Shown in pieces: positions 1,743-63,288 of a stretch of 64,000 nt of DNA; positions within the stretch are counted from its first letter, which is position 1; each line of letters opens with the position of its first letter. A model generated the notes under the pieces. It made no database searches. It was given only the letters and a program-made list of their open reading frames with translations, and was not told the DNA's origin. The stretch is from the NCBI GenBank assembly GCA_951812625.1, contig CATOSP010000002.1:1558788-1622787 (forward strand), in the 5' to 3' direction. A program made the translations under genes and the position numbers. Origin of the DNA: an uncultured Dehalococcoidia bacterium. Lineage in GTDB: Bacteria > Chloroflexota > Dehalococcoidia > Lucifugimonadales > UBA3495.

Positions 1743-1919
1743 AATTACCTTCCTGAATTGGATACCGCTATCGTATCACAGCAAGTCAGTCGCCGAGCGG
1801 ATCAGGCGGTGGCAGGGCAACCGAATTCAGTATATCCCGGCAATAGGTCCTATGCTACAATGCCGTTGGCCGAACGCGGGACCCCGCTTCCCAATACGCT
1901 CCAGGAGAGGATTTGTCCA

Positions 1920-3936: not shown

Positions 3937-4006
3937 CACACGTCACATTAGCACGGTGCCGGGAAATTCCCCAACTGGCGTTGTAGATTCGCTCTTGAAA
4001 CCGGCG

Positions 4007-22723: not shown

Positions 22724-22799
22724 TGGCGCGCCTGGCAGGGGTCGAACCCGCAACCCCTGGGTCCGAAGCCCAGTGCTCTATCCATTGAGCTACAGGCGC
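22724..22799 (-). tRNA. tRNA-Arg (anticodon TCG), CCA encoded
   Basis: I folded it manually. Acceptor GCGCCTG/CAGGCGC, D arm GCTC-AATGGATA-GAGC, anticodon arm CTGGG-CTTCGGA-CCCAG, T arm GCGGG-TTCGACC-CCTGC, discriminator G plus CCA. Total 76 nt. Confidence 0.9.
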
Positions 22800-22814
22800 A
22801 TCAAAGGGGCCGGT

Positions 22815-22892
22815 TGGGGCGAGCGACGGGGTTCGAACCCGTGATCTCCTGTGCCACAGACAGGCGCCTTAGGCCACTTGGCTACGCTCGCC
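22815..22892 (-). tRNA. tRNA-His (anticodon GTG) with encoded G-1, CCA encoded
   Basis: Anticodon arm CCTGT-CTGTGGC-ACAGG, T arm ACGGG-TTCGAAC-CCCGT, acceptor GCGAGCG/CGCTCGC. An extra 5-prime G pairs with C73, the bacterial tRNA-His hallmark. Confidence 0.9.
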
Positions 22893-30391: not shown

Positions 30392-30393
30392 CC

Positions 30394-38758: not shown

Positions 38759-39940
38759 CTAGTCGTCGGCGCTGGCCGCCTTTTCCGGGATTTCCCCGCC
38801 AGTCCCATTGCCGTCGCGGAACGCGAAGCGGTCCACGAGGTCGCCGATGCTCTGGCGGAACCCGGAGTATTCCAGTTCGCCGTAGGGGAGCATCGCCGCG
38901 CCGGACCAACCCTGGGACCGCATGGCAATGCCCTTCTCCTGGGCTTGCTGGCGAACGTAATCCCACGCCGGGTTGTCGAAAAAGTCGGCGAAGGAATCAG
39001 AGAACTCGCCTCTGGAGTTTAGGGAGAACCCAATGCAGGACACCAGCGGAAGGCAGTACATCCCGGTTACGGCGGTGTTTATGGGCACCGGCATCAGCGG
39101 CATGACGTGAGAGCCGCGGGCGTCGCCGCCGATGTAGTGGGCCTTGGCGTAGGGAGAGATAAGCTCCTCAGGCGCTGGGAAGATTCCCTGGTTGCGCACC
39201 AGCGCCACCGGGTCGTCCTTGCCGGTATAGGAGCCGGCGATGTTATGCAAGCGCGTCGCGGACACCGCCGCCGCCACCTGCCCGGAGTACCTAGACACGA
39301 TGGAGTCGATGCCGAACCGCTCGTTGTCGCGCAGCAGCACCGTAATCTTGTAGTAATCCTCGGGAGCATTGAGGGATATGAGGCTGTCTCCATCCGTGTT
39401 GTCCATATCGATGACGTTGAACGTGAACCCCTCCCCGATTCGAGGTAGCATCAGCCCGGCGCAGTACATAGGGTCGGCGAAACCAAGAAACATGGGCAGG
39501 TTATACGCGCCGGGTCCGCACTTGTCTGCGGCCAACACCATGAAGGACTCGGCTGGGCGCATCGGGTTGGTCTTTACCGGATCGTGGTCCATCTCGATCT
39601 CGGCGACCGCAGGCCCTGCGCCACGGATGTTGCCGGATGGAGCGTCAACTAGGAGATCCTGTCCTGCACCATAAAGACCGTATTGGCTGGCGATGTCGGT
39701 GGCGTGCAAGAAAGCATTCCAGGCGAACTGGTGAACGTCCGTATTGTCCGGGCCGTTGGTGTGGGAGGCGATTATGCAGATGTCGTCGCCCGTATGCCCG
39801 ACGAAACTGTCAATCAGTAGCCCACGCCGCACCGCGTCAGCAGTGTCCGACTTCACCGCATCCATCATCCGCTCAGACGGCTTGGTATGGCCACCAATCG
39901 ATCCCACGTCGGCTTTCAGTATGGACAAGGTCAGTTTCAT
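38759..39940 (-). CDS. fbp: Fructose-1,6-bisphosphate aldolase/phosphatase (class V, archaeal-type bifunctional FBP A/P)
   Basis: MKLTLSILKADVGSIGGHTKP...GHTGDDI...YGLYGAGQDLL is highly characteristic of this family. Confidence 0.9.
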   Translation of the reverse strand: MKLTLSILKADVGSIGGHTKPSERMMDAVKSDTADAVRRGLLIDSFVGHTGDDICIIASHTNGPDNTDVHQFAWNAFLHATDIASQYGLYGAGQDLLVDAPSGNIRGAGPAVAEIEMDHDPVKTNPMRPAESFMVLAADKCGPGAYNLPMFLGFADPMYCAGLMLPRIGEGFTFNVIDMDNTDGDSLISLNAPEDYYKITVLLRDNERFGIDSIVSRYSGQVAAAVSATRLHNIAGSYTGKDDPVALVRNQGIFPAPEELISPYAKAHYIGGDARGSHVMPLMPVPINTAVTGMYCLPLVSCIGFSLNSRGEFSDSFADFFDNPAWDYVRQQAQEKGIAMRSQGWSGAAMLPYGELEYSGFRQSIGDLVDRFAFRDGNGTGGEIPEKAASADD

Positions 39941-42709: not shown

Positions 42710-43483
42710 TTACACGGCCATGATGTGATAACCTGCGTCCACCGGGATTACCGAACCAGTGATTCCGGAGGAGAGCCCGCTGCACAAGAACAGGGCTGTC
42801 GTGGCCACCTCGTCGACCGTGATGTTACGCTTGAGGGGCGCGGTTTCGGCATGTAAGCGCTTCATGTCGCGGAAGCCGTCAATGCCCCGGGCGGCCAGGG
42901 TCTCCAACGGGCCTGCCGAGATGGCGTTGACACGCACCCCTTGAGGTCCGAATTCCGAGGCCAGTTGACGGACGCTGTGCTCCAGCGCGGCCTTGGCAGT
43001 GCCCATGACGTTGTATCCGGGGTACACCCGTTGGGACGCATGGAAGGTCAGAGTGACGACGCTACCACCATCTGGCATCAGGTCGGCGGCGTGGCGGACC
43101 AGCGGAATCAGGGAGTACGCGCTGACTTCCAGAGCGATCTGAAAGCCCTCACGGGACGTGTCGGCGAACCGCCCGGTCAGGTCCTCTCGCTGGGCGAAGG
43201 CGATGCTGTGAACCAGGAATGAAATCCCACCGAAAGTGTCCCCAACTTGCGAGAATACATCGGCAATCTGGGAGTCGTCAGTGGCGTCGCAGGGGAGAGA
43301 AATCGCGTCGTCAAGGGTATCAGCTAGCCGCGTGACTCGGCCCTTCACCCGGTCGTTCTGGTAGGTCAGGGCCAGCCGCGCCCCGGCCTCACCCAGCATT
43401 TGTGCGATGCCCCAGGCGATGCTGCGGTCGTTGGCCACTCCAAAAATTATCCCCTTCTTGCCGGTCAGGTCGATCGGATACAA
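42710..43483 (-). CDS. fabI: Enoyl-[acyl-carrier-protein] reductase (NADH)
   Basis: GKKGIIFGVANDRSIAWGIA, YNVMGTAKAALE (Tyr-x6-Lys) and VNAISAGP. Confidence 0.9.
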   Translation of the reverse strand: MYPIDLTGKKGIIFGVANDRSIAWGIAQMLGEAGARLALTYQNDRVKGRVTRLADTLDDAISLPCDATDDSQIADVFSQVGDTFGGISFLVHSIAFAQREDLTGRFADTSREGFQIALEVSAYSLIPLVRHAADLMPDGGSVVTLTFHASQRVYPGYNVMGTAKAALEHSVRQLASEFGPQGVRVNAISAGPLETLAARGIDGFRDMKRLHAETAPLKRNITVDEVATTALFLCSGLSSGITGSVIPVDAGYHIMAV

Positions 43484-43528: not shown

Positions 43529-44545
43529 TTACTTGAAGGCGGGGGCGACCCTTTCCATGAACGCCTCGAACTGCCTCTCTGGTTCAAAGGACGCGAATCG
43601 CACCACCAGGGTCTCCGCACCAGCCGCAACGTACTCGGCCATGCGCTCCCGGACCCGCTCCGCTCCGCCGAAGGGACCCCAGCGGGTGCCCCAGATGTTC
43701 GCGCCGTAGTAGCGGGTGAGCCAGTCCTCCGCCTCTGCCTGGGCCTTGCTCAGGTTTTCATCCATGTTGACTGTAAGGTAGAACACTGCTTCCAAAGCCG
43801 TAGGGTCTCTCCCCCGCTCTGCGGCGATAGCGCGGACCCGTTCCACCACATGCGCGTACTCGTCAGGCGTGTCGGAGATCGACATAACGCCGTCGCCCAG
43901 GCGAGCGGCACGGCGGAACTGGGTCTCCCTGGCGTCGGCGCGCCAGTGGCATGCCAGAAGGACAGGAACCCCACCAGGCTGGACGGGCCGGGGTTCCACG
44001 ACCACGTCGTTTAATTGGAAGTGCTCCCCGGAATACGTGACCGTGTCCCCTGCGCCCAGCGCCTTTACGATTTCTACCAGTTCCACCAAGCGCCGTGCCC
44101 GGAGCGAAGGGTCCACACCCGCAGCAGCCCATTCTCCACGCTGCTCCGAATTGAATGCGCCTCCTGCCCCAGCGGCGACAACCAGCCTCCCGCGGGATAT
44201 AACATCAACAGTCGCCATCGTCTGGGCCAACAGCACGGGATGGCGCAGGGCGGGTAACATTACCGCCGTGCCCAACCGGACCCTCTCGGTGGACGCCGCT
44301 ATAGCCGCAAGCGCGGCCATGGGTTCCAATCTTGGTTTAGCGGTGAGGCTGTCGCCAACCCAGACAGACTCCAGACCTGCATGTTCCGCTTGGCGCGCCA
44401 GCCTGAGAATGAGATCAGCACTGGTGGGAGGTTCATCGCGCAGCAGCAGGCCCCGCGTCGGCAGAAGGATGCCTATGTTCACCGGCTTGGTTGCCACGGC
44501 TACCTCGATAGTGATCAGGATCTGGCAGTTATCGCCTGGAGTCAA
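43529..44545 (-). CDS. LLM-class F420-dependent oxidoreductase
   Basis: VNIGILLPTRG..., AEHAGLESVWVGDS and LVVAAGAGG. TTG start 13 nt after the cofC stop. Confidence 0.8.
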   Translation of the reverse strand: MTPGDNCQILITIEVAVATKPVNIGILLPTRGLLLRDEPPTSADLILRLARQAEHAGLESVWVGDSLTAKPRLEPMAALAAIAASTERVRLGTAVMLPALRHPVLLAQTMATVDVISRGRLVVAAGAGGAFNSEQRGEWAAAGVDPSLRARRLVELVEIVKALGAGDTVTYSGEHFQLNDVVVEPRPVQPGGVPVLLACHWRADARETQFRRAARLGDGVMSISDTPDEYAHVVERVRAIAAERGRDPTALEAVFYLTVNMDENLSKAQAEAEDWLTRYYGANIWGTRWGPFGGAERVRERMAEYVAAGAETLVVRFASFEPERQFEAFMERVAPAFK

Positions 44546-44558
44546 TCGCCTCGGTTGG

Positions 44559-45224
44559 TCAGGACGGGACCTCTATGGGACCACCTGACCGCCCGCTCTC
44601 GGACAGCATTTGTTCCAAAAAGTTCGGTTCCGTCCGTTGCGCAGTGTCCAGGTCGTCGGGAACGTCCAAGTCTAATCCCAGTCCCGGGCTGTGGCAGATG
44701 GCGACAGACACTTCCAGTTCCGCGGCCCTGGCCAAGTGACGGGTGAAACTCTGAGGGCCCAGTTCCGGGCGGAATGGAATCCCACGGGGGACAAGAATAG
44801 CGTTCGTTCCTCCGTCCCGGCGGGCGGGTGCCAAGGTGATGTTGTTCTGGCGGCGGGACGCGTCAAGGACACTATGAACGTCGGCTGCTCTCAGGAACGG
44901 CAGATCGCCGGGCAGGTACAATGCGCCACGGTGCAGGTTAAATGCGAGGTCGAAGGCTCTGGACAGGGTCTCATTCAGGTCGCCACCCAGTTCCTCCATC
45001 CAGTGCCCCCCGCCAGCCTCTGCTTCCTCGCGGACCCTCTGGTCGCCGCCCACCACCCAGATTGGATCTACACCGGCACCCAGGATAGCCTCCAATACTC
45101 GGCGCAGCATCCCGATGGTCAGCTCGCCCCGCTGTCCGGGCGTCAGCCGGTCTGACAGCCGGGTCTTGCTGTCAGGCAATGGTTTCATGGGAACGATTGC
45201 GATTGCGCCGCTCGCCTGCTGCAA
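44559..45224 (-). CDS. cofC: 2-phospho-L-lactate / phosphoenolpyruvate guanylyltransferase (CofC/FbiD)
   Basis: AIVPMKPLPDSKTRL, VVGGD, LPGDLP and GGTNA. Confidence 0.8.
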   Translation of the reverse strand: MQQASGAIAIVPMKPLPDSKTRLSDRLTPGQRGELTIGMLRRVLEAILGAGVDPIWVVGGDQRVREEAEAGGGHWMEELGGDLNETLSRAFDLAFNLHRGALYLPGDLPFLRAADVHSVLDASRRQNNITLAPARRDGGTNAILVPRGIPFRPELGPQSFTRHLARAAELEVSVAICHSPGLGLDLDVPDDLDTAQRTEPNFLEQMLSESGRSGGPIEVPS

Positions 45225-45232
45225 TGTCTTAT

Positions 45233-46168
45233 TTACCCATTCGCCAAGGCGAGAATGTGGCGGGCAAGCCCGACCTTGTCGTCGTCATCGTTCATTATGA
45301 TGGACGCGACCTCCGCTTGGATTCCGATTCCTTCGATCATTGGCGCGTGGGCGGCATCTTCGTGGTCGATCAGGAAAATGTCCAGCATCTCTTCGTATTG
45401 CCGCGCCACGGCTGTACAGGATACCGCCTCCCCCAATTCCGCCATCATCTTCCCTGCCGGCCCGCGAAGCGCCGCACCTCCAACGATGGGGCTGACGCCA
45501 ACACGGATACCCCCAAAGCCCTTCATAAGGACGCGCAAGCCCGGGACTGCCAGTATCGGACCCAAGCTCAGGAACGGGTTGGACGGGCAGAAAATAACCA
45601 TCTCCGCATATTCCAGCGCTTCCAGCAGCCCCCGCGACGGGGAAGCAGAGTCTGCCCCCACGTAATTGACGGCGTTCACCTTCGGTTCGCTCTGCCAGCG
45701 GACGAAGTAGTCCTGCATGGCCAATTCACCGGAATCGGTGCTCAACGTCGTGCGCACACGATCATCGGTCATCGGAACTACTCGGTGCATGACACCCAGT
45801 TTGCGGCACAGTTCCTCAGTGGCCTCGGATAATGTGGCTCCTTCCCGGAGCAGACGGGTGCGGGTGATGTGAGTTGCCAGGTCATTGTCTCCCAGGTTGA
45901 ACCACGTCTCCGCCCCGTACTTCCCCAGCATGGAGAGAGCGTTGAATGTCTCGCCAGCCAGACCCCATCCAGTCTCAGGGTTAGCCAGCCCGGCGAGAGT
46001 GTACATCACCGTATCCAAGTCGGGAGAGACATGCAGGCCATGGAACTCTTCGTCATCCCCGGTATTGACTACGACTGTCAGCCGCTCCGGAGGCAAAATC
46101 CGGGACAGGCCCAAGACCAACTTCGCACCGCCCACTCCGCCCGCAAGGGCCAGCACATGTCCGTCCAT
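45233..46168 (-). CDS. cofD: 2-phospho-L-lactate transferase (CofD/FbiA)
   Basis: VLALAGGVGGAKL, VVNTGDD, WFNLGD and CPSNPFLSLGPIL. Confidence 0.9.
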   Translation of the reverse strand: MDGHVLALAGGVGGAKLVLGLSRILPPERLTVVVNTGDDEEFHGLHVSPDLDTVMYTLAGLANPETGWGLAGETFNALSMLGKYGAETWFNLGDNDLATHITRTRLLREGATLSEATEELCRKLGVMHRVVPMTDDRVRTTLSTDSGELAMQDYFVRWQSEPKVNAVNYVGADSASPSRGLLEALEYAEMVIFCPSNPFLSLGPILAVPGLRVLMKGFGGIRVGVSPIVGGAALRGPAGKMMAELGEAVSCTAVARQYEEMLDIFLIDHEDAAHAPMIEGIGIQAEVASIIMNDDDDKVGLARHILALANG

Positions 46169-46180
46169 ACCGGCCGCGGT

Positions 46181-47566
46181 CTAACAGGGGTCGGAGTCGG
46201 CTGCCACGCCGGAGGATGCGGCCGATGTTGCCGCTCCTTGGCCTACCCGGTTGGGATGCTCAAACCTGTAGGTATCCAGCTTCACCAGCCTGTGGTAGGA
46301 ACCGAACAACTCTTCAACGTTGTCTCCGATCACGTCCAATGGGTCCAGTTCTTCGTCATTGTCGCTGAAGACCCGTTTCGTTCCGTAGGTAGTATAGCGT
46401 TCGGCAGGGATACGTCCTGCCTGCCGGATCATCTCACGGAACTCTGCCGGACGCATCAACTGGCCGTGCTGCGCCCCGGCAGCGGTGGAAATGCTCTCGT
46501 TGATGAGGGTGCCGCCCAGGTCGTTCACCCCTGCCGTCAGCAGGATCTGAGACATCCGAGAGCCTTCCTTAACCCAGGATGCCTGCACGTTGGGAATCCA
46601 GTTGTTCAGCATGATCCGTGCGATGGCGTGAACCTTGACAACATCCATCCCGGTTGGGCCGGAGCGGACGTTGCTGACCAGGCCTTTCATGAACATTGGC
46701 GCTTCGGTATGCACAAAGCTCAAGGGCACGAATTCGGTGATACCGCCCGTCTGTTTTTGGATGTCCCGCAGCAAATCAATATGGCGAGCGATGTGCTCGT
46801 TGGTTTCCCGATGCCCGAACATGACCGTGGAGGTGGTGGGAATTCCCAACTCGTGGGCGGTGGTAATCACCTCGACCCACTGATCAACGCGGATCCGGCC
46901 TGGAGAGATTATGTCCCTCAACTCCTGATCGAGAATCTCTGCGGATGTGCCCGGAAGGCTGCCCACACCCGCAGCCTTCAACCCCTCAAGGTACTCCCGT
47001 ATGCTGCACCGGGAACGGACAGAGCCGTACAGTACCTCTTCGGGAGAAAACCCGTGGATGTGCATGTCCGGCAGTTCTTCCTTGATGGCCTCACAGAGCT
47101 TGATGTACAGGTTTCCCTCCATCTGGGGAGGCAACCCAGCCTGGATGCATACCTCAGTTGCACCGTAGTCCCAGGCTTCCCTAGCCCGGCGGATGACCTC
47201 ATTGACGGGCAACAGGTAGCCCTCTTCCTCGCGGAAGTCACGGCTGAAGGCGCAGAAGCCGCACCGCTTGATGCATACGTTGGTGAAGTTGATGTTCCGG
47301 TTCACGACGTAGGTAACGACGTCGCCAACGGCACGGCGGCGAAGTTCGTCCGCCACCAACGTCATGGCGCTGTACTCAAGACCGGCGGTCTCGAAAAGCA
47401 CGACGGCCTCATCGACGGATATGTCCTCGCCGGACAGCGCACGATCCAGGATTCTGCCCACCGCAGGGTCCAGACGACCTATCTGGGTATCGATGCTCGG
47501 AGCATCTGGTCTATTGCTATTCGTTCCCGGCATATCGTTGGACCCCTCCTCTAACGTAACCCTCAT
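46181..47566 (-). CDS. cofH: FO synthase subunit 2 (radical SAM, CofH; equals the FbiC C-terminal half)
   Basis: NRNINFTNVCIKRCGFCAF radical SAM motif. Met 47533 is an alternative start. Confidence 0.9.
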   Translation of the reverse strand: MRVTLEEGSNDMPGTNSNRPDAPSIDTQIGRLDPAVGRILDRALSGEDISVDEAVVLFETAGLEYSAMTLVADELRRRAVGDVVTYVVNRNINFTNVCIKRCGFCAFSRDFREEEGYLLPVNEVIRRAREAWDYGATEVCIQAGLPPQMEGNLYIKLCEAIKEELPDMHIHGFSPEEVLYGSVRSRCSIREYLEGLKAAGVGSLPGTSAEILDQELRDIISPGRIRVDQWVEVITTAHELGIPTTSTVMFGHRETNEHIARHIDLLRDIQKQTGGITEFVPLSFVHTEAPMFMKGLVSNVRSGPTGMDVVKVHAIARIMLNNWIPNVQASWVKEGSRMSQILLTAGVNDLGGTLINESISTAAGAQHGQLMRPAEFREMIRQAGRIPAERYTTYGTKRVFSDNDEELDPLDVIGDNVEELFGSYHRLVKLDTYRFEHPNRVGQGAATSAASSGVAADSDPC

Positions 47567-48845
47567 CGTCCGCTAAACGGGCAACTCTGGCCTTAAGCTG
47601 TGGCGGCAGGAAAGAATCGGTATCGACGAAGAATTCCGGGTATACGGGCAGCCTGGGCCGCAACTCGAACCCTTCTGCCCGGGTCCTGTCCCGTAATTCG
47701 GCGATCCCAGGCCACGGAGCTTCCGGGTTCACGTAGTCAATCGTCAGCGGGGAGATGCCACCCCAATCGTTGATACCCGCATTCAGGTAAACCTGGTAGC
47801 TGTCGGCACTCAGGTTCGGGGGTACTTGGACGTTCACACTAGACCCCAGGATCAGACGCGCAGCGGCCACGGTCCACAGCAGTTCGACGGCCTCAGCGTC
47901 CGGCTCCTCTCCCATAGGCGTGTCCGGCTTGGCACGAAAGTTCTGGACGATTACTTCCTGAATGTTGCCATACTGTTCGTGGGCCTCACGTATGGCCAGC
48001 AGTGATTCGATCCGGTCCAGCCGGGCCTCCCCTATGCCAATAAGAATGCCGGTGGTGAAAGGCAGACCCAATTCTCCGGCAAGCTCCATCGTCCGCAAAC
48101 GGACCCTTGGACGCTTGCTCGGCGCGTGTTCGTGCGGTCCGCCGACGGCATACAACCTGTCGCTTGTGCTCTCCAGCATGACGCCAACTGACGGATTGAA
48201 AGGCTGGAGAGCGGCGATCTCATGCCGACTCATTGTGCCGGGGTTGGCGTGGGGAAGCAGGTTAGTTTCTTCGAGCACCAGCTTGCAAACGTCTGTCAGA
48301 TAGCCCAGTGTGGTGCGGTAACCTCGGTGTTGCAGCCACTCACGGGCCTCCGGGTATCGCTGCTCCGGGCGTTCTCCCAAAGTGAACAGGGCCTCGGTAC
48401 AACCCAAGCGTTCTCCGGCCCTCGCGACGTCAAGCACTTGCTCCGGGGTTAGATACAGGTTTCCCTCCGCCTCGACCGGACTTTGCCGGAAGGTGCAGTA
48501 ACCGCAGAAGTCGCGGCAGAGACGGGTAAGTGGGATAAACACCTTCGGCGAAAATGTGATCGTGTTGCCCTTGCCCCGGTCGCGCAACCTCGATGCTGCA
48601 TCACACATTTCCGGTATGCGGTCATTGGGAACATCGCAAAGCACCGATGCGCTGGCGCCATCACCATCCCAGATGTTTAGAAGCACATCATCCAAACTTG
48701 GGATTGGCAGCCGTTTTTGAACTGTAGTGGAAGTTGAATCTGGAGAGTTCAAAAGGTTGCGTCTCTTTCCTTGTTGGCGCCGCACAATTTCAAACGTGTG
48801 AGGATGGCGGCTCGGGGGTTGGAACACAAAGAACAGTTGCGCCAA
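47517..48845 (-). CDS. cofG: FO synthase subunit 1 (radical SAM, CofG; equals the FbiC N-terminal half)
   Basis: ITFSPKVFIPLTRLCRDFCGYCTF. The start is uncertain: the listed ORF begins with TTG and has about 50 unconserved-looking N-terminal residues. The 3-prime end overlaps cofH by 17-50 nt. Confidence 0.85.
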   Translation of the reverse strand: MAQLFFVFQPPSRHPHTFEIVRRQQGKRRNLLNSPDSTSTTVQKRLPIPSLDDVLLNIWDGDGASASVLCDVPNDRIPEMCDAASRLRDRGKGNTITFSPKVFIPLTRLCRDFCGYCTFRQSPVEAEGNLYLTPEQVLDVARAGERLGCTEALFTLGERPEQRYPEAREWLQHRGYRTTLGYLTDVCKLVLEETNLLPHANPGTMSRHEIAALQPFNPSVGVMLESTSDRLYAVGGPHEHAPSKRPRVRLRTMELAGELGLPFTTGILIGIGEARLDRIESLLAIREAHEQYGNIQEVIVQNFRAKPDTPMGEEPDAEAVELLWTVAAARLILGSSVNVQVPPNLSADSYQVYLNAGINDWGGISPLTIDYVNPEAPWPGIAELRDRTRAEGFELRPRLPVYPEFFVDTDSFLPPQLKARVARLADDEGYVRGGVQRYAGNE

Positions 48846-48904: not shown

Positions 48905-49954
48905 TCAGAAGCCGCTCAGCCGCGCCTGGTCGAGACGCTGGTGTGGCTGTACCGGAAGCCCCAGATATTCGTAAGCGAGGCGGGTGGCGACCCTTCCCCG
49001 TGGGGTACGATCGAGGAATCCCAACTGGATCAGGTACGGCTCCCATACATCCATTACCGTGCCCGTGTCTTCGTTCATGGAGGCCGCGAGAGTTTCCAGC
49101 CCCACCGGCCCGCCGTCGAACTTGTTTATGATACTGGAAAGCAGCCGGTGGTCCGACTGGTCCAGTCCACGCTCATCAACCTGTAGCCTGTCCAGTGCGT
49201 CCCGCGCCACCGGCCCGGTCACCCTGTTGTCCGCCATCACCAGGGCATAATCGCGCGTGCGCTTCAACAGCCGGTTGGCGATGCGTGGGGTGCCCCGGGA
49301 GCGGTGCGCGATTTCATCCAGCCCCTCCTCTTCAGCTTCCATTTCCATTATCTTCGCCGACCGCTCTACTATCAGACGCATGTCCTCGGGCTGGTAATAG
49401 TCCAGCCGAAACACGGACCCGAACCTGTCCCGCAGGGGGGCGCTGAGGAGGGAAAACCTGGTGGTGGCGCCGACCAGGGTGAAGGGATTGATACGCAGGT
49501 TTACGCTCCGTGCAGCCAGCCCCTTACCCACCATCCAGGATAGGAAGAAGTCCTCCATCGCCGAGTATAGCACCTCTTCCACCATACGTGGGAGGCGATG
49601 AATTTCGTCGATAAATAGCACACTGCCCGGTTGCAGCCCGGTCAGGATAGCAGCGATGTCGCCGGCCCGCTCGATAGCCGGGCCGGAAGTGACCCGGATT
49701 TCAACTTCCATTTCCTGGGCGATTATATGGCCCAAGGTCGTCTTGCCAAGGCCGGGAGGCCCGTAGACGACCACGTGGTCCAACGGGTCCCCACGCATCC
49801 TGGCAGCCTGAATCCCGATTGACAGGTTTTCCTTGACGTGGGGCTGCCCAACGAAGTCGTCCAAGCGCCTCGGGCGCAGCGTCAGGTCCTGATCGTCGGG
49901 CTGGGCATGACCGGAAACTAATCGTTCCTCGGAGTCGTCTTCCACACTCTGCAA
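48905..49954 (-). CDS. ruvB: Holliday junction branch-migration helicase RuvB
   Basis: [21 protein letters not shown] Walker A, and FIDEIHRL. The likely start is TTG 49954 (or GTG 49945), just after the fabF stop, with GAGGAG inside the last fabF codons. The listed 423-aa ORF overlaps fabF and is over-extended. Confidence 0.9.
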
Positions 49955-49958
49955 AAGG

Positions 49959-51209
49959 TCACTCCTCGAACTTTCGAAACACCACGCAAGCGTTCTGCCC
50001 TCCGAAGCCAAAGGCGTTGGACAGGGCCGTCCGCACGTCGACCTGCCTGGCAATGTTCGGAACGTAATCGAGATCGCAGTCCGGGTCCGGAGTCTCGTAG
50101 TTGATGGTCGGGTGGAGCATACCGGAAGTGATGGATTTGACACAGGCCGCAGCCTCCAGAGCGCCCGACGCACCAAGGGAGTGTCCGATCATCGACTTCG
50201 TGGAACTGATTGGAATGCGGTAGGCAACAGCCCCGAACAACCTCTTGATAGCGACAGTCTCCAGGGCGTCGTTCAGCGGGGTTGACGTACCGTGGGCGTT
50301 AATGTAGTCAACCTGGTCCAACTCGACCCTCGCATCCTCCAAAGCTAATCGCATCGCTTCCGCAGCGCATGTCCCTGACTCCTCCGGCTGCACTGGGTGG
50401 CCTGCGTCTGACGTGGAGCCGAATCCCGACACCTCGGCCAGTATAGTCGCGTTTCGGTCAATTGCGTGCTGCAGCTCTTCCATCACCAGCACAACTGCGC
50501 CCTCTGCTGGCACGAAACCGTCGCGCTCTGCGTCGAACGGGCGGCTGGCCCGTTCCGGGTCATCGTTACGGGTGCTCAACGCCCGCATCACGGCGAAACC
50601 GGCCAAGCCTAGCTGACTAATCCCTGCCTCCGCGCCACCGGCCAGAATCACGTCGGCGGCACCGCGCCGAATCGCTGCCAAGGCGTCGCCTATCGCCTGG
50701 TTGGAGGCAGCGCAGGCCGTGGTAGCCGTGGAGTTGAACCCCTTTGCCCCGGCAACACGGCTCACGTTGGCCGCGGCCATGTTCGGGAGAATCATTGGGA
50801 AGAAGAACGGCGACATCCTCATGCCACCCCGGCTGGCCAGCACGCGGCAATTCTCCTCCAAGGTTGGGAAACCGCCGTTGCCGTTTCCCAACACCACGCC
50901 AACACGGAATGGGTCTTCGGCCGACATGTTCAGCGCGGATTCCTCAACGGCCCTCATCGCAGCGGCCACCGCCAACTGGGAGAACCGGGCCATGCGCCGC
51001 GCCTCCCGGCTGGGCAGGTACTGGGTTGGGTCAAAGTCCCTCACCTCCCCGGAGATGCGGCAGGGGTAGTTGGTCGGGTCACACTGGGTCATCGGGCCAA
51101 TCCCGGGCTTCCCGGCAACTAGATTCTCCCAGAATGTGTCGACACCCTGGCCCAAAGGGGTTATGGCCCCGATACCGGTTACCACGACCCTAGGACGTCC
51201 CTGCGTCAC
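49959..51209 (-). CDS. fabF: Beta-ketoacyl-ACP synthase II
   Basis: [13 protein letters not shown], active-site [13 protein letters not shown] and GHSLGASG. Confidence 0.9.
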
Positions 51210-53652: not shown

Positions 53653-53833
53653 GTTCCGACTCCACAGATAGCAAACACCCCCAAGCAGTGTCAAGAGCCA
53701 ACGGTCAAACCTGACCAGTAACCCCATTGGCGAGGAGGAAAGCAGGCTGGATCGGCTTGTCAGATTTGGTTAGACTATCATGGGTTGCAACTGGGATAGC
53801 CACCGAGGAAATCCAGGCACAGGAACGGGATTT

Positions 53834-54775
53834 ATGGACGGATCGGACCTTAGATTCGGCATAGGCCTTACTGGAGGAGCCGCTGAAACTGCCCAACAGG
53901 CCAGGTGGCTAGAGGAGTTGGGATATGACTACCTGTCCTCCGGCGAACACTACATGAGAGGCAACCCGCCTGGTCCCACGCATACAGCTCTACCCCTGCT
54001 TGCGGTTGCTGCAGGAGCCACACAACGAATCCGTATCGCGTCAACAATCGTACTCGCGCCCTTCTACCATCCAACCATCCTTGCGAAGCTGGCCACCACC
54101 CTCGACATCGCTTCCGGGGGTAGGTTGACCCTCGGTATAGGGGTTGGCGGAGAGTACCCCGTCGAGTTCAAGGCCGCCGGCCTCAACGTGCGACAACGCG
54201 GGCGGCGCACTAACGAGTGCCTGGAGGCACTGCGGCTGCTGTGGACCGAGGATCACGTCTCATATCAGGGACGCCATTTCAAATTGGATGACGTGACCCT
54301 TTTGCCCAGGCCGACCCAACAACCCCATCCACCTGTTTGGGTGTCAGGTCGGCGTGACGCCGCCATGTCCCGGGCCGCCCGATACGGCGATGGATGGATG
54401 CCCTATTTCTACGACCCTCCCAGGTACAGGGACAGCGTGGAGAAGATTGAGGGATTTGCCTCCGATGCCGGACGGAGCCTCGACGACTTTCATTGGGCCT
54501 ACTTCCCCTACATTTCTATCCATGATTCGGTTGAGCAAGCCGCAGATGTAGCCACCAGAGCCTTGGGAGGCCGTTATCTCCGCAGTGGTGGCTTCGCGGA
54601 CATCGTGCATCGCTACTGCATTCTAGGCCCGGTTGAGATGTGCGTGGCCCGGCTCCAAGAATATATTGACGCCGGAGCCCGTCACATAATTTTCAGCGTC
54701 GCCTGCGACCGCGAAGACCGTGAGAGGCACGTCGAAACCATCGCGAAGGAGATCATCCCCCAGCTCAAAGGATAG
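53834..54775 (+). CDS. LLM-class F420-dependent oxidoreductase
   Basis: MDGSDLRFGIGL..., LEELGYDYLSSGEH and GIGVGGEYPVEF. Met 53834 is the likely start. Confidence 0.8.
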   Translation: MDGSDLRFGIGLTGGAAETAQQARWLEELGYDYLSSGEHYMRGNPPGPTHTALPLLAVAAGATQRIRIASTIVLAPFYHPTILAKLATTLDIASGGRLTLGIGVGGEYPVEFKAAGLNVRQRGRRTNECLEALRLLWTEDHVSYQGRHFKLDDVTLLPRPTQQPHPPVWVSGRRDAAMSRAARYGDGWMPYFYDPPRYRDSVEKIEGFASDAGRSLDDFHWAYFPYISIHDSVEQAADVATRALGGRYLRSGGFADIVHRYCILGPVEMCVARLQEYIDAGARHIIFSVACDREDRERHVETIAKEIIPQLKG

Positions 54776-55024: not shown

Positions 55025-56815
55025 ATGTCGAGAATCAAGCGGGTTATGTTAGTGCAGCCGGCTTCCGCCGGTGGGAACTTTGAATATATAGCCATACCGC
55101 GTCAGGGGATGCTGTTCTTATCCGGAGCGTTGGCTCAATGGGAAGGAACCTACCTGTACGACCGTGAGATATGGTTCGAGGACCGCTCAGGGGTCATCGA
55201 CCCTGACAGGGACCTTGACGGAGTCGACATCCTGATGGTTACGGCGCTGATCAATGAAGCCCCCCGGGGATATCAGATAGCCCGGCTGGCCAAACAGCAC
55301 CATCCCGACTTGATCACCATCGGCGGCGGGCCCCAGATGAGCCCGCTGTCGGAAGAGGCATTCGAGTATGGCCACTTCGACGTCATCGTGCAACGTGAGG
55401 GCGAGGATATCATAGGCCAGCTATGCGACGTCCTCCTCACATACCAAGGCGAAGAGCGGAACGGCTACCTGGACAAGGTCCCAGGCATCTCCTATCGGAA
55501 GGACGGCCATGTCGTCCAGACTGCCCGGCGGGGACTGGTGTCGCCCGATTTCGTGGAACTACCTGACTTTCGTTCCATCCGTGACCTGACCCCGGCCAAC
55601 CCGATGGCTGGAGGCGTGATCGAGACCGTCCGGGGGTGCACCGAGAGCTGCACTTATTGCCAAGTGATCCAGCAATTTCTGGGGTACCGCCTGGTGAGCC
55701 GTGAGACGGAGCACAAGCGGCTTGCCCATTTAAGGGAACTGGCGGACGATGGGCTGATACATTCATCCCGCAATGGCACTTTCCAAATATTCATCTCCGA
55801 CGACCTGCATCCGCCTCCGCTCAGGGCCACCAAGTTCCGCAACGAACGGCTGGAGCGGCTCAAGTCTTGGAAGGACCATACTGACGGCATGTACCTCATC
55901 TGCCAGGCTCGTGCCGAGGTCGGACAGGACCCAGAGCTGTCGGAGGCGATGTTGGACGCCAACATCAAGATGGTCTATGTCGGCGTCGAGTCGGACAACG
56001 CAGAGAACCTCCAGCTTGTCCGGAAGCGGCAAGAGCCGGGCCAAGTCCACACCGACCTGACCAGTATGAACCGCTCGGGGTTCTCGGTCGTGGCCATGAC
56101 CATAATCGGCCTGCCCTATGACACCGAGCAGAGTATCATGGAACTGGCAGACTGGGTTACGGAAATCAGTAACTACCAGACGGTCAACCTGCTGACCCCG
56201 CTGCCCGCTACCTCCAACTGGGACTCCCTTGCGCCTCTGAATGCCGACGGCGAGATTCTCCAGGAAGGGGAGATGCGTCCTTACCACCTCTATACGGGCC
56301 GCCAGTTTGTCCACTACGACGAGCGCTGGACGATGGAAGCGAGCAGGGAGCTGTTCGACAGGTATTCGGCTCGCCTCACACCGATTGATGATCTCTACCA
56401 GCGCATTTTCCGCATCCTGCGGACCTACCGGCTCAGACTGGCCGCCACGAGCAGGGACCTGGGTGACTCCATCAGCTCCCGGATCACGGAGGCGATTGAA
56501 AGCCTCCGTGGCTGGTCCGACCCGGTTTCACTCCCGGGGTCCGAGTTTTCCGACAACATCGCTGTCCGCGTCGGAGAGTTGGCTGACAGGCTACGGTCGG
56601 TCTCCCAGCCTCTTGCCAATGCTCGACGGGAAGTCGTGGACAACATTGGCCAGAGCGTCGCAGAGCTTACGGAGTCATTGAACAAGCTGTCTGGCCCGAT
56701 CGACGATGGCAAACGAGAACTGGCGGCGAACATATCGAACCGAATCACCGAAATCACCGAGTCATTGAATCGTGCAGTCACAGAAACCCGAGGAGGAAGA
56801 GTCGCCAGGGACTGA
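55025..56815 (+). CDS. B12-binding-domain (class B) radical SAM protein with C-terminal 4 x 29-aa repeat region
   Basis: N-terminal cobalamin-binding-like domain (RVMLVQP...LITIGGGPQMS). CTESCTYC (Cx3Cx2C) at aa 205-212. Repeats begin at aa 481, 510, 539 and 568. RBS GGGAG upstream. Confidence 0.85.
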   Translation: MSRIKRVMLVQPASAGGNFEYIAIPRQGMLFLSGALAQWEGTYLYDREIWFEDRSGVIDPDRDLDGVDILMVTALINEAPRGYQIARLAKQHHPDLITIGGGPQMSPLSEEAFEYGHFDVIVQREGEDIIGQLCDVLLTYQGEERNGYLDKVPGISYRKDGHVVQTARRGLVSPDFVELPDFRSIRDLTPANPMAGGVIETVRGCTESCTYCQVIQQFLGYRLVSRETEHKRLAHLRELADDGLIHSSRNGTFQIFISDDLHPPPLRATKFRNERLERLKSWKDHTDGMYLICQARAEVGQDPELSEAMLDANIKMVYVGVESDNAENLQLVRKRQEPGQVHTDLTSMNRSGFSVVAMTIIGLPYDTEQSIMELADWVTEISNYQTVNLLTPLPATSNWDSLAPLNADGEILQEGEMRPYHLYTGRQFVHYDERWTMEASRELFDRYSARLTPIDDLYQRIFRILRTYRLRLAATSRDLGDSISSRITEAIESLRGWSDPVSLPGSEFSDNIAVRVGELADRLRSVSQPLANARREVVDNIGQSVAELTESLNKLSGPIDDGKRELAANISNRITEITESLNRAVTETRGGRVARD

Positions 56816-56909
56816 ACCCAAGAGTCCAACCAGTTGACGGGCAGGTTACAGAATCGGACATTCAAGCTGGGGTGTGGGGAGGCAGAGTTTCGCCACGTGA
56901 TAAGCATCA

Positions 56910-56942
56910 GAACGGACGGTGGGCAATTCCCTTCGTCCGTTC
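56910..56942 (+). terminator. Stem-loop between rSAM gene and second fabF (possible terminator or attenuator)
   Basis: GAACGGACG / CGTCCGTTC: a perfect 9-bp stem with a 15-nt loop. No clear U-tract. Confidence 0.3.
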
Positions 56943-57094
56943 CGTATTACTGTGGCCGTCCACGATTCCCAGGGTTCGGGCAATTACTGCGGCAATGGCG
57001 ACCTGAAAATCGTGCCGGAGTGGAAAGCAGGGGCCACTACTTGGCATATGCGTGAGATGTTTGGAGGAACCCCTTAACTGAAACCGGGAATAGT

Positions 57095-58351
57095 ATGAAC
57101 GAGTTCCAACGTGTCCTGATAACTGGGATTGGAATTGTCAGCCCCCTAGGACTAGATGTGCCCTCTACTTGGCAGCGACTGGTTGAAGGCAAGTCCGGGA
57201 TCGATTACATCACAGCCTTCGACTCGACAGGGTTCGATACACAAATCGCTGGTGAGGTAAAGGGCTTCGACCCGGAGGACTACCTGGACCGCAAGGAGGC
57301 GAGACGGATGGACCGCTTCGCCCAGCTTGCCGCGGTGGCGGCCCAGGAAGCGTGCCGTCGGGCCCAACTCGATCCGCGCTCCGGTGATCCCTACCGCGTA
57401 GGAGTGATCATTGGCAGCGGCATCGGCGGGATTATCACCCTGAGCCAGCAGCAGGAAGTCTTGAGCCAACGGGGACCGAAACGGGTAAGCCCCTTCCTGA
57501 TCCCCATGATGCTCGCGGACATGGCCTCGGCCCAGGTATCGATGGTTACCGGGGCGATGGGGGCCAATTACTGCTTGGTGTCGTCGTGCTCCAGTGGCGC
57601 TGACGCTTTGGGACAGGGTTGGGAGATGGTTCGCCGGGGACAGGAGGATATCGTGCTGGCGGGTGGTAGCGAGGCACCCGTTTCCCCCATAGCCGTGGCG
57701 GGCTTCAACTCCATGCGCGCTCTGTCGAGATTCAATGAATCGCCCCAAGAGGCCAGCCGCCCTTTCGATATACAACGGGACGGGTTCGTGATGTCCGAGG
57801 GGGCCGCAGTCCTGGTGCTTGAGAGCGAGAGCAGCGCGCAACGTAGGGGGGTTTTGCCGTTGGCGGAACTTCGCGGCTACGGGGCCACATCCGACGCGCA
57901 TCACCTGACCGAGCCAGGGCCGACAGGCCAGAGCGCGGCCCGTGCCATGCTGCTAGCCCTGGAATCGTCGAGATTGGACCCTTCGCATGTGGACTATGTT
58001 AACGCCCATGGCACATCGACTCCATTGAACGACCGACAGGAGACCAAGGCAATCAAACTGGCTCTCGGGGAAGAAGCACACCGCATTCCCATAAGTTCCA
58101 CTAAGTCTATGACCGGTCACCTGCTAGGCGCAGGCGGAGCGTTGGAAGCGGCCATCTGCGTGCAGGCCCTGCTGAATGAAGCGCTGCCCCCCACGATCAA
58201 CCTCCGGGAGCGGGACCCGGAATGCGACTTGGACTACACACCCAATCAGGCCCGGCATCAGCAAGTGCGAGTGGCGATGAGCAACTCCTTCGGCTTCGGG
58301 GGACACAACTCCGTCCTAGTTTTCACCCACTCGGACTGCCCCACGCCGTAG
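57095..58351 (+). CDS. fabF: Beta-ketoacyl-ACP synthase II paralogue
   Basis: VLITGIGIVSPLG, active-site [13 protein letters not shown] and GHLLGAGG. The Cys-His-His triad is intact. Confidence 0.9.
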   Translation: MNEFQRVLITGIGIVSPLGLDVPSTWQRLVEGKSGIDYITAFDSTGFDTQIAGEVKGFDPEDYLDRKEARRMDRFAQLAAVAAQEACRRAQLDPRSGDPYRVGVIIGSGIGGIITLSQQQEVLSQRGPKRVSPFLIPMMLADMASAQVSMVTGAMGANYCLVSSCSSGADALGQGWEMVRRGQEDIVLAGGSEAPVSPIAVAGFNSMRALSRFNESPQEASRPFDIQRDGFVMSEGAAVLVLESESSAQRRGVLPLAELRGYGATSDAHHLTEPGPTGQSAARAMLLALESSRLDPSHVDYVNAHGTSTPLNDRQETKAIKLALGEEAHRIPISSTKSMTGHLLGAGGALEAAICVQALLNEALPPTINLRERDPECDLDYTPNQARHQQVRVAMSNSFGFGGHNSVLVFTHSDCPTP

Positions 58352-61952: not shown

Positions 61953-62862
61953 CTCCAGTTCTACCTGCTTCTTCCCAACGCCGATACACCGTTCCCCATT
62001 CTTCCAGAGTCAGGGTCTCGGGTCTCCGGCGTCCATCCAGACCGATGTCCTCGAGGATTTTCCCTGCATCCGCCGCCAGGATTCCCAAGCCCTGGCTAAG
62101 GGAATTGCGCAATTGCTTGCGCGGGGCGGCGAACCCGGCTCGGACGACTTCGAAGAAGCTGTCCGGTGATCCCACTTTGAACGCCGGGCTTGTCCGCACG
62201 TCCATCCGCACCACCGAGGACGCCACTTTCGGAGCCGGGCGAAACGCCCTGGAGGGAACGTTGCAGACCAGCCTGGGGACAGCGTAGAACTGGATTGCAA
62301 CCGACAGGATACCCATCCTGCCCGGTTGAGCCACCATGGACTGAGCCACCTCCCTCTGCACCATCACCACCATTGATTCGGGCTTTGTATCAGACTCCAG
62401 GAACCGGCGTATGATGGGGCTGGCGGCATAATAGGGGAGGTTTGCCACAACACGGTAGGAACTGTCCGCGTCGACCAGGGATGCAAAGTCAACTGTGCGA
62501 GCATCGGCGTGGACGACAGTCAGGTTGGGAGGAAATTCCAGCCGGTATGGCAACTCCTTGGCAAGGGCACCGTCCATCTCTACTGCGACGACGCTGCCTG
62601 CGCTCCGCACCAGTCTGCGCGTCAACACTCCCCGCCCCGGTCCGACTTCCAGAACGACAGTATCTCGAGTGAGGTCGGCGGCGGCCACGATGCGGTCAAG
62701 TATTCGGCCGTCCGCCAGGAAATGCTGCCCCAGAGACTTCCTTGGTCTGGGTCCAGACCGTGGAAGCGGGACAAGTCCATTGGATCGAGGTGAACCCCCG
62801 GCAGCCTTGGGTTCCACGGTTAGCGGATTAGAGACCGCGCACCTCCCTTTGACGACGACCAT
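61921..62862 (-). CDS. rsmA: 16S rRNA (adenine1518/1519-N6)-dimethyltransferase
   Basis: PRKSLGQHFL, VLEVGPGRGVLT and NLPYY. The N-terminal about 40 aa are unconserved-looking, so the start is uncertain. It overlaps ispE by 32 nt. Confidence 0.9.
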   Translation of the reverse strand: MVVVKGRCAVSNPLTVEPKAAGGSPRSNGLVPLPRSGPRPRKSLGQHFLADGRILDRIVAAADLTRDTVVLEVGPGRGVLTRRLVRSAGSVVAVEMDGALAKELPYRLEFPPNLTVVHADARTVDFASLVDADSSYRVVANLPYYAASPIIRRFLESDTKPESMVVMVQREVAQSMVAQPGRMGILSVAIQFYAVPRLVCNVPSRAFRPAPKVASSVVRMDVRTSPAFKVGSPDSFFEVVRAGFAAPRKQLRNSLSQGLGILAADAGKILEDIGLDGRRRPETLTLEEWGTVYRRWEEAGRTGVEQGGNRCSG

Positions 62863-62887
62863 TGAACGTGCACCGGGCTGTGACTCG

Positions 62888-62982
62888 GGTCAGGCACTCC
62901 CACGGCACCCGCAGGAGCCTGCTTACCGTTGCTCCTTTCGGCCTGGCGGGGTTCACAAGTCTGCGCCGCGTGGGACCCAACC
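62888..62982 (-). ncRNA. ffs: Signal recognition particle RNA (small bacterial 4.5S-type)
   Basis: The minus strand reads GUGAACCCCGCCAGGCCGAAAGGAGCAACGGUAAGC. This is the conserved helix-8 core (CAGG/AGCA symmetric loop flanking a GNRA tetraloop). The flanks pair as UCCCACG/CGUGGGA, CGCAG/CUGCG and GGUUGGG/CCUGACC, giving a ~95-nt hairpin. Ends are approximate to +/-10 nt. Confidence 0.7.
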
Positions 62983-63288
62983 TTCAATATCGACGGCCCG
63001 GCACATTGGGCCAATGGAGCCGCCTGGGGGAGGCATTCAACCCCGCTATAGCGGATTGCGAGTTCAGGGCACCGCTAGCTCCCCGTCTAGCGCGGCCTCA
63101 ATAACATGGTAGGCCAGCAACCCAAGGGTGTCAAACAACCTCCCCATGCTAGTAACCGGGGAAACCCTGTCTGGAAGGTGCACTTCCGCGATACACTCGG
63201 GAGGAAGTGGTGAATACTTCGCTCACCAGCGATCGCATTGTTCCCACATCTGGCAGATGATAGAATCGCTACGAATTTGGAGGGCGCG

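Follow-up and report, generated by a model that had tools for sequence, protein, structure and literature searches.

A repeat-tailed radical SAM protein encoded beside fabF in SAR202 and related Dehalococcoidia, and its possible role in fatty acyl modification

What does a radical S-adenosylmethionine (SAM) enzyme that carries a tandem-repeat tail do beside a gene of fatty acid synthesis in a member of the Dehalococcoidia? The question is raised by a stretch of 64,000 nucleotides (nt) from an uncultured Dehalococcoidia bacterium (assembly GCA_951812625.1, contig CATOSP010000002.1, positions 1,558,788 to 1,622,787 of the forward strand; referred to as the window), in which a gene for a 596-residue radical SAM protein (rSAM) precedes a gene for a FabF-type beta-ketoacyl-acyl carrier protein (ACP) synthase II (KAS II). 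A first-pass annotation made from the sequence had proposed a lipid-tailoring module with the repeat tail as tether. The reading favoured here, tentatively and at somewhat less than even confidence, is of a peripheral-membrane, cobalamin-type rSAM enzyme that would modify a fatty acyl chain, most probably by C-methylation, docked by C-terminal amphipathic helices and tied to FabF/ACP-dependent synthesis.

The class-B radical SAM architecture claimed for the protein was confirmed as a fold in the predicted structure. The Pfam model Radical_SAM (PF04055) matched amino acids (aa) 199-378 at 44.4 bits against a gathering score of 29.5, and the CxxxCxxC motif of the superfamily was present as CTESCTYC at the residues given by the first-pass annotation (aa 205-212), placing the protein in the radical SAM superfamily on both counts. 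The three cysteines C205, C209, and C212 were invariant in alignments of 83 and 150 family sequences, and the protein as read from its sequence has five cysteines in total, none of them for an auxiliary cluster. AlphaFold2 models built from two different alignments had predicted local distance difference test (pLDDT) values above 90 over most of aa 1-460, including a Rossmann-type N-domain in which strands alternate with helices. Foldseek comparison with the PDB gave AprD4 as the best match, with MgmA, CysS, OxsB, TokK, and TsrM also among the top matches and target-normalised template modelling (TM) scores of 0.41-0.70 for the class-B entries MgmA, TokK, TsrM, OxsB, and CysS. From sequence and model, the N-domain is predicted to bind cobalamin. 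A PduO-type cobalamin adenosyltransferase gene in the window (1758..2504, +; PF01923, 169.6 bits) indicates that the organism processes cobalamin and makes the use of this cofactor in the source organism plausible.

Judged by similarity scores, the protein is a member of a distinct, uncharacterised family of SAR202 and related Dehalococcoidia. Of 5.8 billion proteins searched, 1374 were relatives at E<=1e-10; the best 120 had 73-99% identity and lengths of 568-622 aa (mostly 596-600 aa), and the named entries among them were metagenome-assembled genomes of the SAR202 cluster, Dehalococcoidia, or Chloroflexota. Among 1.84 billion representatives at 50% identity, only 33 were found below 1e-30, and the scores in this library fell abruptly from at least 226 bits within the family to about 105 bits and about 30% identity for generic class-B enzymes. 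No NCBIfam class-B family reached its cut-off, the best being MgmA-type TIGR04014 (64.3 bits against 360), and HpnJ, HpnR, BchE, PhpK, ApyD, KedN5, and the ladderane family TIGR04072 scored 19-59 bits against cut-offs of 251-750. It is this sharp score gap, together with the lack of any NCBIfam subfamily near its cut-off, that marks the family as distinct and uncharacterised. Assignment as BchE, HpnJ/HpnR, PhpK, a methylase of ribosomally synthesized peptides or antibiotics, or a ladderane rSAM was rejected, all scores lying below 65 bits against cut-offs of 250-750; the protein does not group with BchE or the antibiotic methylases, the non-lipid clades that the first-pass annotation had considered. 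In the collection of papers searched, none joined SAR202 with radical SAM enzymes.

Outside the Chloroflexota, the nearest relatives were on two short archaeal-looking contigs (L050, 2496..3980; L051, 938..2587). One homologue of 49-51% identity (P0125) lay between cysS and a fibrillarin-like methyltransferase gene on a contig with a GC content of 0.40, and another of 32-36% identity (P0133) adjoined the gene for ribosomal protein L7Ae. These homologues on contigs with archaeal marker genes suggest an inter-domain transfer of the family. In one tail-less lineage lacking an adjacent fabF (L058), a second B12-binding/radical SAM paralogue of 446 aa (3232..4572) was encoded some 2.4 kb upstream of the rSAM gene, which was followed by a gene for a family III CoA-transferase. 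A C-terminal fragment of the family (P0418) was deposited under the sponge Geodia barretti, which fits SAR202 as sponge symbionts. Sponges of the type that hosts SAR202 are known for mid-chain-branched fatty acids.

The C-terminal tail of the window's protein is a genuine repeat array. Its BLOSUM62 self-offset score was 1.247 at an offset of 29 residues and 0.81 at 58, with all other offsets at 0.43 or less; the best score over offsets 10-59 had a mean of -0.22 +/- 0.12 across 2000 shuffles, with a maximum of 0.40, and none of them (0/2000) matched the tail. The four exact 29-residue repeats reported by the first-pass annotation were recovered in their starts (aa 481, 510, 539, and 568) and in the exactness of the period; the copies themselves are far from exact, sharing pairwise only 6-11 of 29 residues (21-38%) and 26-45 of 87 bases. 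Tandem Repeats Finder reported no 87-bp DNA repeat in the tail-coding region, which excluded a DNA-level tandem repeat and points to old, diverged copies rather than recent slippage.

Among the 49 species-level genomes, the tail of 43 aligned to the 4 x 29 array of the window almost without indels, one of these (L044) having a short deletion in repeat 1; a separate genome (L004) had a broken reading frame. The tail evolved more rapidly than the core (in most four-repeat genomes 42-62% identity, against 74-82%), is under purifying selection essentially without indels, and has as its most conserved element LRSVSQPLANxRRE, which spans the junction of repeats 2 and 3. Copy number differed among sister clades, with 0, 1, 2, 4, 6, or more repeats. 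Tail-less members had 489-513 aa and often ended in GEAVPVRV, a conserved C-terminal G-E-A-(V/I)-P-V-R-V being found in L053, L055, L059, L060, L063, and others and missing from the tail-bearing SAR202 forms; a 512-aa protein (L056) had one repeat, and forms of about 540 aa had two. The period varied as well: the tail of P0313 was made of four units of about 26 aa, and P0121 and P0363 (proteins of 636-684 aa) carried long arrays with a unit of 11 residues.

On the searches made here, the repeat anchor appears unique to this rSAM family. A profile of 13 tails matched 63 of 5.8 billion proteins, and the seven inspected, which included all those on long contigs, were C-terminal fragments of the same family, so the tail module is regarded as family-specific and a module common to other proteins was rejected. 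Searched alone, the region from aa 456 to 596 gave at E<=10 only sub-threshold matches to coil-like Pfam models; a known domain was thereby ruled out, and neither Pfam nor the tail profile pointed to a domain with a non-lipid role. Precomputed Pfam matches to Apolipoprotein (PF01442) were listed for the long-tail members and for two members of about 590 aa. The window's own tail scored 17.4 bits against PF01442, below the gathering cut-off of 90.

Fourier analysis of tail hydrophobicity gave a single dominant peak at 3.60 residues (power 162; shuffled sequences gave 52 +/- 11 and at most 94), in agreement with the earlier remark that 29 residues make about eight helical turns; since they do, the apolar stripe keeps its phase over the full length of the tail. 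Variants overall peaked at 3.65-3.70 residues, and the long ones at 3.65 and about 11. A heptad coiled coil would require a periodicity of 3.5 residues, which the tail does not have, and on sequence its 3.60-residue periodicity is that of apolipoprotein- or synuclein-type repeats or of straight helical bundles. Four tail helices (481-496, 509-531, 535-555, and 563-595) were present in the AlphaFold2 model built from the deeper alignment, with block-mean pLDDT values of 59-85 over aa 481-590. The repeat helices were amphipathic, as the first-pass annotation had expected, with hydrophobic moments of 0.43-0.59 (0.38 in one flanking window) and low mean hydrophobicity. The apolipoprotein-like character assigned to the tail is supported by the in-phase periodicity and by the Pfam matches of longer variants, and not by the score of the window's own tail.

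The likeness to apolipoproteins also brings up a coat-like role, in which a phasin-, late embryogenesis abundant (LEA)-, or perilipin-like tail would target the enzyme to polyhydroxyalkanoate or lipid granules or serve in stress protection. Similarity of the tail to the Apolipoprotein, ApoLp-III, and HsbA models and the construction of the long variants from 11-mer repeats lean that way. These similarities are weak, all matches to coat-type models lying far under their cut-offs, and no granule-related gene was found nearby among the annotated open reading frames (ORFs) of the window, so that a coat is considered very improbable.

A further helix precedes the repeats, at aa 451-477 (LTPIDDLYQRIFRILRTYRLRLAATSR), and was placed by AlphaFold2 at 454-475. 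It had the highest hydrophobic moment of the whole protein (0.64), a net charge of up to +6, and a HeliQuest lipid-binding discriminant (D) of 1.1-2.3. The helix was retained in tail-less and archaeal members, with its equivalent basic in bacterial members (D 1.1-1.9) and not so in the two archaeal ones (D 0.46 and 0.77). On these sequence properties it is the stronger candidate for a membrane anchor than the repeats.

The gene that follows rSAM encodes, as had been stated, a complete FabF with an intact Cys-His-His triad (C165, H305, and H342), and its product scored 589.9 bits against the FabF equivalog TIGR03150 (cut-off 493.75). Conservation of this arrangement was assessed in a pooled set of 49 species genomes, 80 metagenome loci, and contigs from an exact protein look-up, with adjacency scored as a co-directional fabF within 700 nt in loci with enough flank. 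A co-directional fabF orthologue followed the rSAM gene in all 49 species genomes, also where the upstream synteny was lost, and in 87/87 tail-bearing loci (two-repeat 7/7, four-repeat 79/79, and long form 1/1), bearing out the expectation that the pair is kept in relatives. The order acpS-yjeF-rSAM-fabF, usually followed by recJ, was found in several tail-less lineages (GC content 0.63-0.69). The rSAM family is part of a conserved gene set in SAR202 and related Dehalococcoidia.

The first-pass annotation had cautioned that a hairpin and a 279-nt gap between the two genes leave co-transcription unassured. Gap and hairpin both exist; the hairpin has a 10-pair outer stem at -20 kcal/mol (RNAfold), lacks a U-tract, and was present only in the two closest genomes (L001 and L002), and gaps across the loci were 28-428 nt with a median of 130 nt. 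A terminator scan called none in the window's rSAM-fabF gap, and with the hairpin not conserved an intrinsic terminator between the genes was dismissed. A riboswitch or other known RNA beside rSAM or fabF was likewise rejected, since the Rfam scan of the window found only the signal recognition particle (SRP) RNA and two tRNAs, all elsewhere.

The mechanism that we infer would begin with the [4Fe-4S] cluster at CTESCTYC, which would cleave SAM to a 5'-deoxyadenosyl radical that removes hydrogen from a hydrophobic aliphatic substrate at an unactivated carbon. Cobalamin held in the Rossmann-like N-domain would most likely then give a methyl group, with desaturation or cyclisation as alternative outcomes. 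The substrate would most likely be a fatty acyl chain, on ACP or within a membrane lipid, and is favoured because the gene lies directly upstream of a FabF orthologue and near acpS in relatives. The enzyme is proposed to act on the cytoplasmic side of the membrane, where it would dock via the basic amphipathic helix at aa 451-477, which in SAR202 would be extended by a fast-evolving amphipathic repeat array of variable copy number (here 4 x 29 aa) whose hydrophobic stripe is in phase along the tail, like the 11-mer repeats of apolipoproteins.

Several results weigh against this proposal. The Pfam B12-binding model (PF02310) matched aa 66-130 at 30.3 bits, just below its cut-off of 32.1, so that only the first of the two profiles suggested for the protein, Radical_SAM and B12-binding, exceeded its threshold. 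The best structural match AprD4 is an enzyme that is not known to use cobalamin, and because it has the same fold, the fold of the N-domain alone is no proof of cobalamin binding. There was no sequence link to a characterised lipid-modifying rSAM, HpnR, HpnJ, and TIGR04072 scoring 19-59 bits against cut-offs of 360-650. The repeat tail has a net charge of -4, only two aromatic residues in 116, and HeliQuest discriminants as low as -0.13 to 0.69; these properties weaken the case for it as a membrane or lipid tether, with the basic helix before it the better candidate. The adjacent FabF was indistinguishable from canonical housekeeping FabF by TIGR03150 and by scores to solved FabF structures. 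Adjacency was found in only 10/22 short-form loci, although two of the 12 misses look like truncated ORFs, and was missing in L053/L062, L058, L067, L072, L120, and L135 and from both archaeal-type contigs. In L056, fabF and recJ were together and the rSAM gene was divergent and apart from both. The functionally unrelated recJ was also syntenic, in 49/62 four-repeat loci, and inherited gene order within one bacterial class could therefore explain much of the rSAM-fabF adjacency. The idea of a lipid-tailoring module is partly supported: it keeps the support of architecture, amphipathic tail, and fabF adjacency, and is weakened by a canonical-looking FabF and an adjacency that is kept in tail-bearing loci and patchy in short forms.

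In a rival explanation, synteny was inherited with no functional coupling, the target is a non-lipid housekeeping one (a protein, an RNA, or a cofactor intermediate), and the tail is a straight helical bundle for partner binding or oligomerisation. Its setting would be the housekeeping neighbourhood seen throughout (recJ, lgt, an ispE-like gene, ksgA, folC, and ruvB, with fusA in relatives), in which recJ is nearly as syntenic as fabF, and the translation and RNA genes cysS and fibrillarin, or L7Ae, beside the archaeal-type homologues. The closest relative of solved structure by sequence is moreover a protein methylase, MgmA (methyl-coenzyme M reductase glutamine C-methyltransferase; 9ccb, 48 bits), which is also the best match among NCBIfam families; its 64 bits compare with a cut-off of 360, nothing in the window, whose genes are of the usual bacterial housekeeping kind, points to methyl-coenzyme M reductase, and the only cultured SAR202 is an aerobic heterotroph. 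Acidic repeats with a narrow hydrophobic stripe, modelled as four helices with short loops, would fit a bundle. Set against this explanation, the rSAM-fabF pair persists where other neighbours change, with gaps down to 28 nt; copy number and period vary widely among sister clades, which is unusual for a partner-specific domain; the periodicity is 3.60-3.70 residues, not the heptad 3.5; and the bacterial members share a conserved basic amphipathic helix. Taken together, this explanation is judged unlikely, if still a serious one.

Comparison of the two fabF genes of the window calls part of the initial picture into question. The first-pass annotation had described a second KAS II beside rSAM, with a housekeeping-looking fabF elsewhere (here fabF1, the rSAM-adjacent copy being fabF2). 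This division was not upheld: the two are 53% identical, both pass the FabF equivalog, and each scored about 450 bits to Bacillus subtilis FabF (450 bits to 4ls5 for fabF2). By sequence, fabF2 is orthologous to the fabF beside rSAM in tail-less relatives, and in several of these acpS and yjeF lie upstream; rSAM-adjacent fabFs were 58-64% identical to those of distant relatives, which in turn were 51-55% identical to fabF1. The product of fabF2 retains the canonical pocket motif GSGIGG, and SAR202 fabF2 genes encode an unusual VSSCSSG around the active-site Cys, where fabF1 has the usual TTACAAS. The fabF1 product and all 39 orthologues found in the loci examined have GNGNGGF where FabF normally has GSGIGG(L/I), a site that we take to be the acyl-pocket loop, near Ile108 of Escherichia coli FabF. 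An altered chain-length or substrate preference is thus suggested for fabF1 rather than for the rSAM-adjacent copy, and the assignment of specialised and housekeeping roles may have been the wrong way round.

Known systems offer partial precedents for the favoured fatty acyl-modifying enzyme. The archaeal B12-rSAMs of lipid tails (Gmm, Cgm/Saci_1785, Pgm, Ted, and GrsA/B) likewise combine a Rossmann-like N-domain with an rSAM core and act on unactivated carbons of the hydrocarbon chains of membrane lipids, and archaeal-type members occur in the family described here as well. For Cgm, binding to the membrane through the C-terminus is predicted, and the desaturase Ted is likewise predicted to be a peripheral membrane protein. 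In models of Grs a C-terminal helix is thought to bind substrate (PMC13459092). The relation to these enzymes is only the generic class-B one, nothing outside the family exceeding about 105 bits or 30% identity; the substrate proposed here is a bacterial fatty acyl chain, and the archaeal enzymes are not described with a repeat tail or a FabF neighbour. The ladderane clusters of anammox bacteria pair a B12-rSAM with FabF homologues (PMC13459092) and, as here, keep a cobalamin-type rSAM gene with KAS II and ACP-related genes; they differ in that TIGR04072 gave 19.2 bits against a cut-off of 360, FabF is canonical here, and a dedicated ACP, FabZ, or phytoene-desaturase-like gene is missing. The hopanoid methylases HpnP/HpnR and HpnJ are also class-B rSAMs acting on membrane lipids, whereas the present protein scored 50.8 bits to HpnR (cut-off 650) and 59.2 bits to HpnJ (577.6) in a context with no hopanoid genes.

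Carrier-linked substrates have a precedent in CysS and TokK/ThnK, which were among the best structural matches and for which crystal structures with pantetheinylated substrates exist; they share 13-17% identity with the present protein, belong to secondary-metabolite clusters, lack a repeat tail, and act on substrates other than fatty acids. For the tail, the exchangeable apolipoproteins, alpha-synuclein, and perilipin-type 11-mers offer in-phase tandem amphipathic helices with a periodicity of about 3.6-3.67 and Pro/Gly punctuation, in contrast to which the tail described here is acidic, aromatic-poor, fused to an enzyme, and of 29-residue period.

These precedents also admit a lipid enzyme that is no methylase, namely a desaturase, a cyclase, a C-C coupling enzyme (cf. 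Ted and Grs), or an enzyme that, like AprD4, would work without cobalamin and whose substrate would be a lipid or polar head-group precursor. In the archaeal Gmm/Cgm group close homologues carry out methylation or desaturation, and the top Foldseek rank of AprD4 and the sub-threshold B12-binding score would suit an enzyme of the last kind. No data favour desaturation, cyclisation, or coupling over methylation, the cysteines of an auxiliary cluster are missing, and cultured SAR202 has abundant methyl-branched fatty acids, with no unusual cyclic or coupled ones reported. A lipid enzyme of another chemistry is accordingly held to be improbable.

The fatty acids of cultured Chloroflexota bear on the favoured C-methylation. 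The only cultured SAR202, an aerobic heterotroph, contained 54.4% summed feature 9 (10-methyl C16:0 and/or C17:1 w9c) and 20.2% 10-methyl C18:0 (PMC10444878, Supplementary Table 4), and no monounsaturated fatty acid was detected in strain JH545 (PMC10444878). The same table gives 25.8% 10-methyl C16:0 for D. mccartyi and 90.4% branched C19:0 for Tepidiforma bonchosmolovskayae (PMC10444878, Supplementary Table 4); 10-methyl C16:0 is listed for Tepidiforma flava as well, and 12-methyl C18:0 occurs in Nitrolancea. The known routes to 10-methyl C16 and C18, the kind of product dominant in cultured SAR202, are BfaAB and TmpBA, which were described in actinomycetes and proteobacteria and need an olefin (PMC7791843): a SAM methyltransferase, from a family unrelated to radical SAM, modifies an olefin at delta-9 (or delta-11), and a reductase acts next. 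The link between the rSAM gene and the methyl-branched fatty acids of the Dehalococcoidia is circumstantial. The stronger proposal, that the family is a new cobalamin-dependent rSAM fatty-acyl C-methylase which would place a mid-chain methyl directly on a saturated chain, in conjunction with its FabF neighbour and held by an expandable apolipoprotein-like anchor, is a speculative one that we consider unlikely as it stands.

Table 1. Features of the rSAM-fabF locus and the second fabF, in window coordinates.
Feature	Position	Strand	Basis
rSAM gene, 596 aa, ATG start	55025..56815	+	ORF list
Rossmann-like N-domain of predicted cobalamin-binding type (aa 1-195)	55025..55609	+	Pfam, AlphaFold2, Foldseek
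Radical SAM core (aa 199-378)	55619..56158	+	Pfam PF04055, full-length model 1-166
CTESCTYC, CxxxCxxC motif for the radical SAM [4Fe-4S] cluster (aa 205-212)	55637..55660	+	
Basic amphipathic C-terminal helix (aa 451-477), proposed primary membrane/substrate-interface helix	56375..56455	+	
Tail repeat 1 (aa 481-509)	56465..56551	+	
Tail repeat 2 (aa 510-538), bearing the most conserved tail motif LRSVSQPLANARRE	56552..56638	+	
Tail repeat 3 (aa 539-567)	56639..56725	+	
Tail repeat 4 (aa 568-596), least conserved copy	56726..56812	+	
Hairpin in the 279-nt rSAM-fabF gap, not terminator-like	56910..56942	+	RNAfold
fabF2, FabF (KAS II) gene, downstream partner of rSAM	57095..58351	+	TIGR03150
fabF1, paralogous FabF	49959..51209	-	TIGR03150, 571 bits

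Elsewhere the window consists of ordinary core genome, including folC, ruvB, coenzyme F420 biosynthesis genes, lgt, ksgA, and the SRP RNA. Among its annotated ORFs there was no acpP, fabD, fabG, fabH, fabZ, or cfa-like gene, and a fab operon was rejected, fabI and the two fabF genes being scattered. The fabI itself (42710..43483) had FabI models as its only best matches, in line with the first-pass annotation, with every score below its cut-off. The longest ruvB ORF (48905..50176, -) shares 218 nt with fabF1. Because the RuvB model is matched only from aa 92 onwards, the gene probably starts further downstream, which would make the overlap an artefact of ORF listing. The F420 biosynthesis genes cofC, cofD, cofH, and cofG lie in a row at 44559..48845 (-), and cofE, for F420-0:gamma-glutamyl ligase, at 984..1742 (-). 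Two genes for luciferase-like F420-dependent oxidoreductases (43529..44545, -; 53780..54775, +) flank the region, and one such gene is directly upstream of rSAM in most SAR202 genomes. An HpaB-type 4-hydroxyphenylacetate 3-hydroxylase gene is beside that of another luciferase-like monooxygenase (28922..31443, -), a pair typical of the expanded oxygenase repertoire of SAR202. A gene for a FBPase_3-type fructose-1,6-bisphosphatase, a class known mainly from archaea and deep-branching bacteria, was identified at 38759..39940 (-; PF01950, 445 bits). The RNA genes comprised a bacterial large SRP RNA at 62835..63095 (-; 172.7 bits) and two adjacent tRNA genes at 22727..22891 (-).

Whatever its substrate, the protein is a clear natural case of an enzyme that acquired an amphipathic repeat array of variable copy number (0, 1, 2, 4, 6, or more), and the array is informative for the evolution of anchors in peripheral membrane enzymes. 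Of most interest is a connection, open to test, with the methyl-branched lipids made by a clade that is abundant worldwide. SAR202 ranks with the dark ocean's most abundant groups of bacteria, with only one lineage cultured, and about three-quarters of the fatty acids in the cultured representative were reported as mid-chain methyl-branched, with the monounsaturated precursor not detected (PMC10444878). One specific, conserved, FabF-linked cobalamin-type rSAM gene is a testable candidate for the origin of methyl-branched fatty acids in the Dehalococcoidia. If this were true, the route would bypass the olefin-dependent chemistry of BfaAB and TmpBA and would add the ordinary fatty acids of bacteria to the lipids with tails methylated by radical SAM enzymes, so far established for hopanoids and for the ether lipids of archaea; it would also bear on how methyl-branched fatty acids are read as biomarkers in sponges and sediments.

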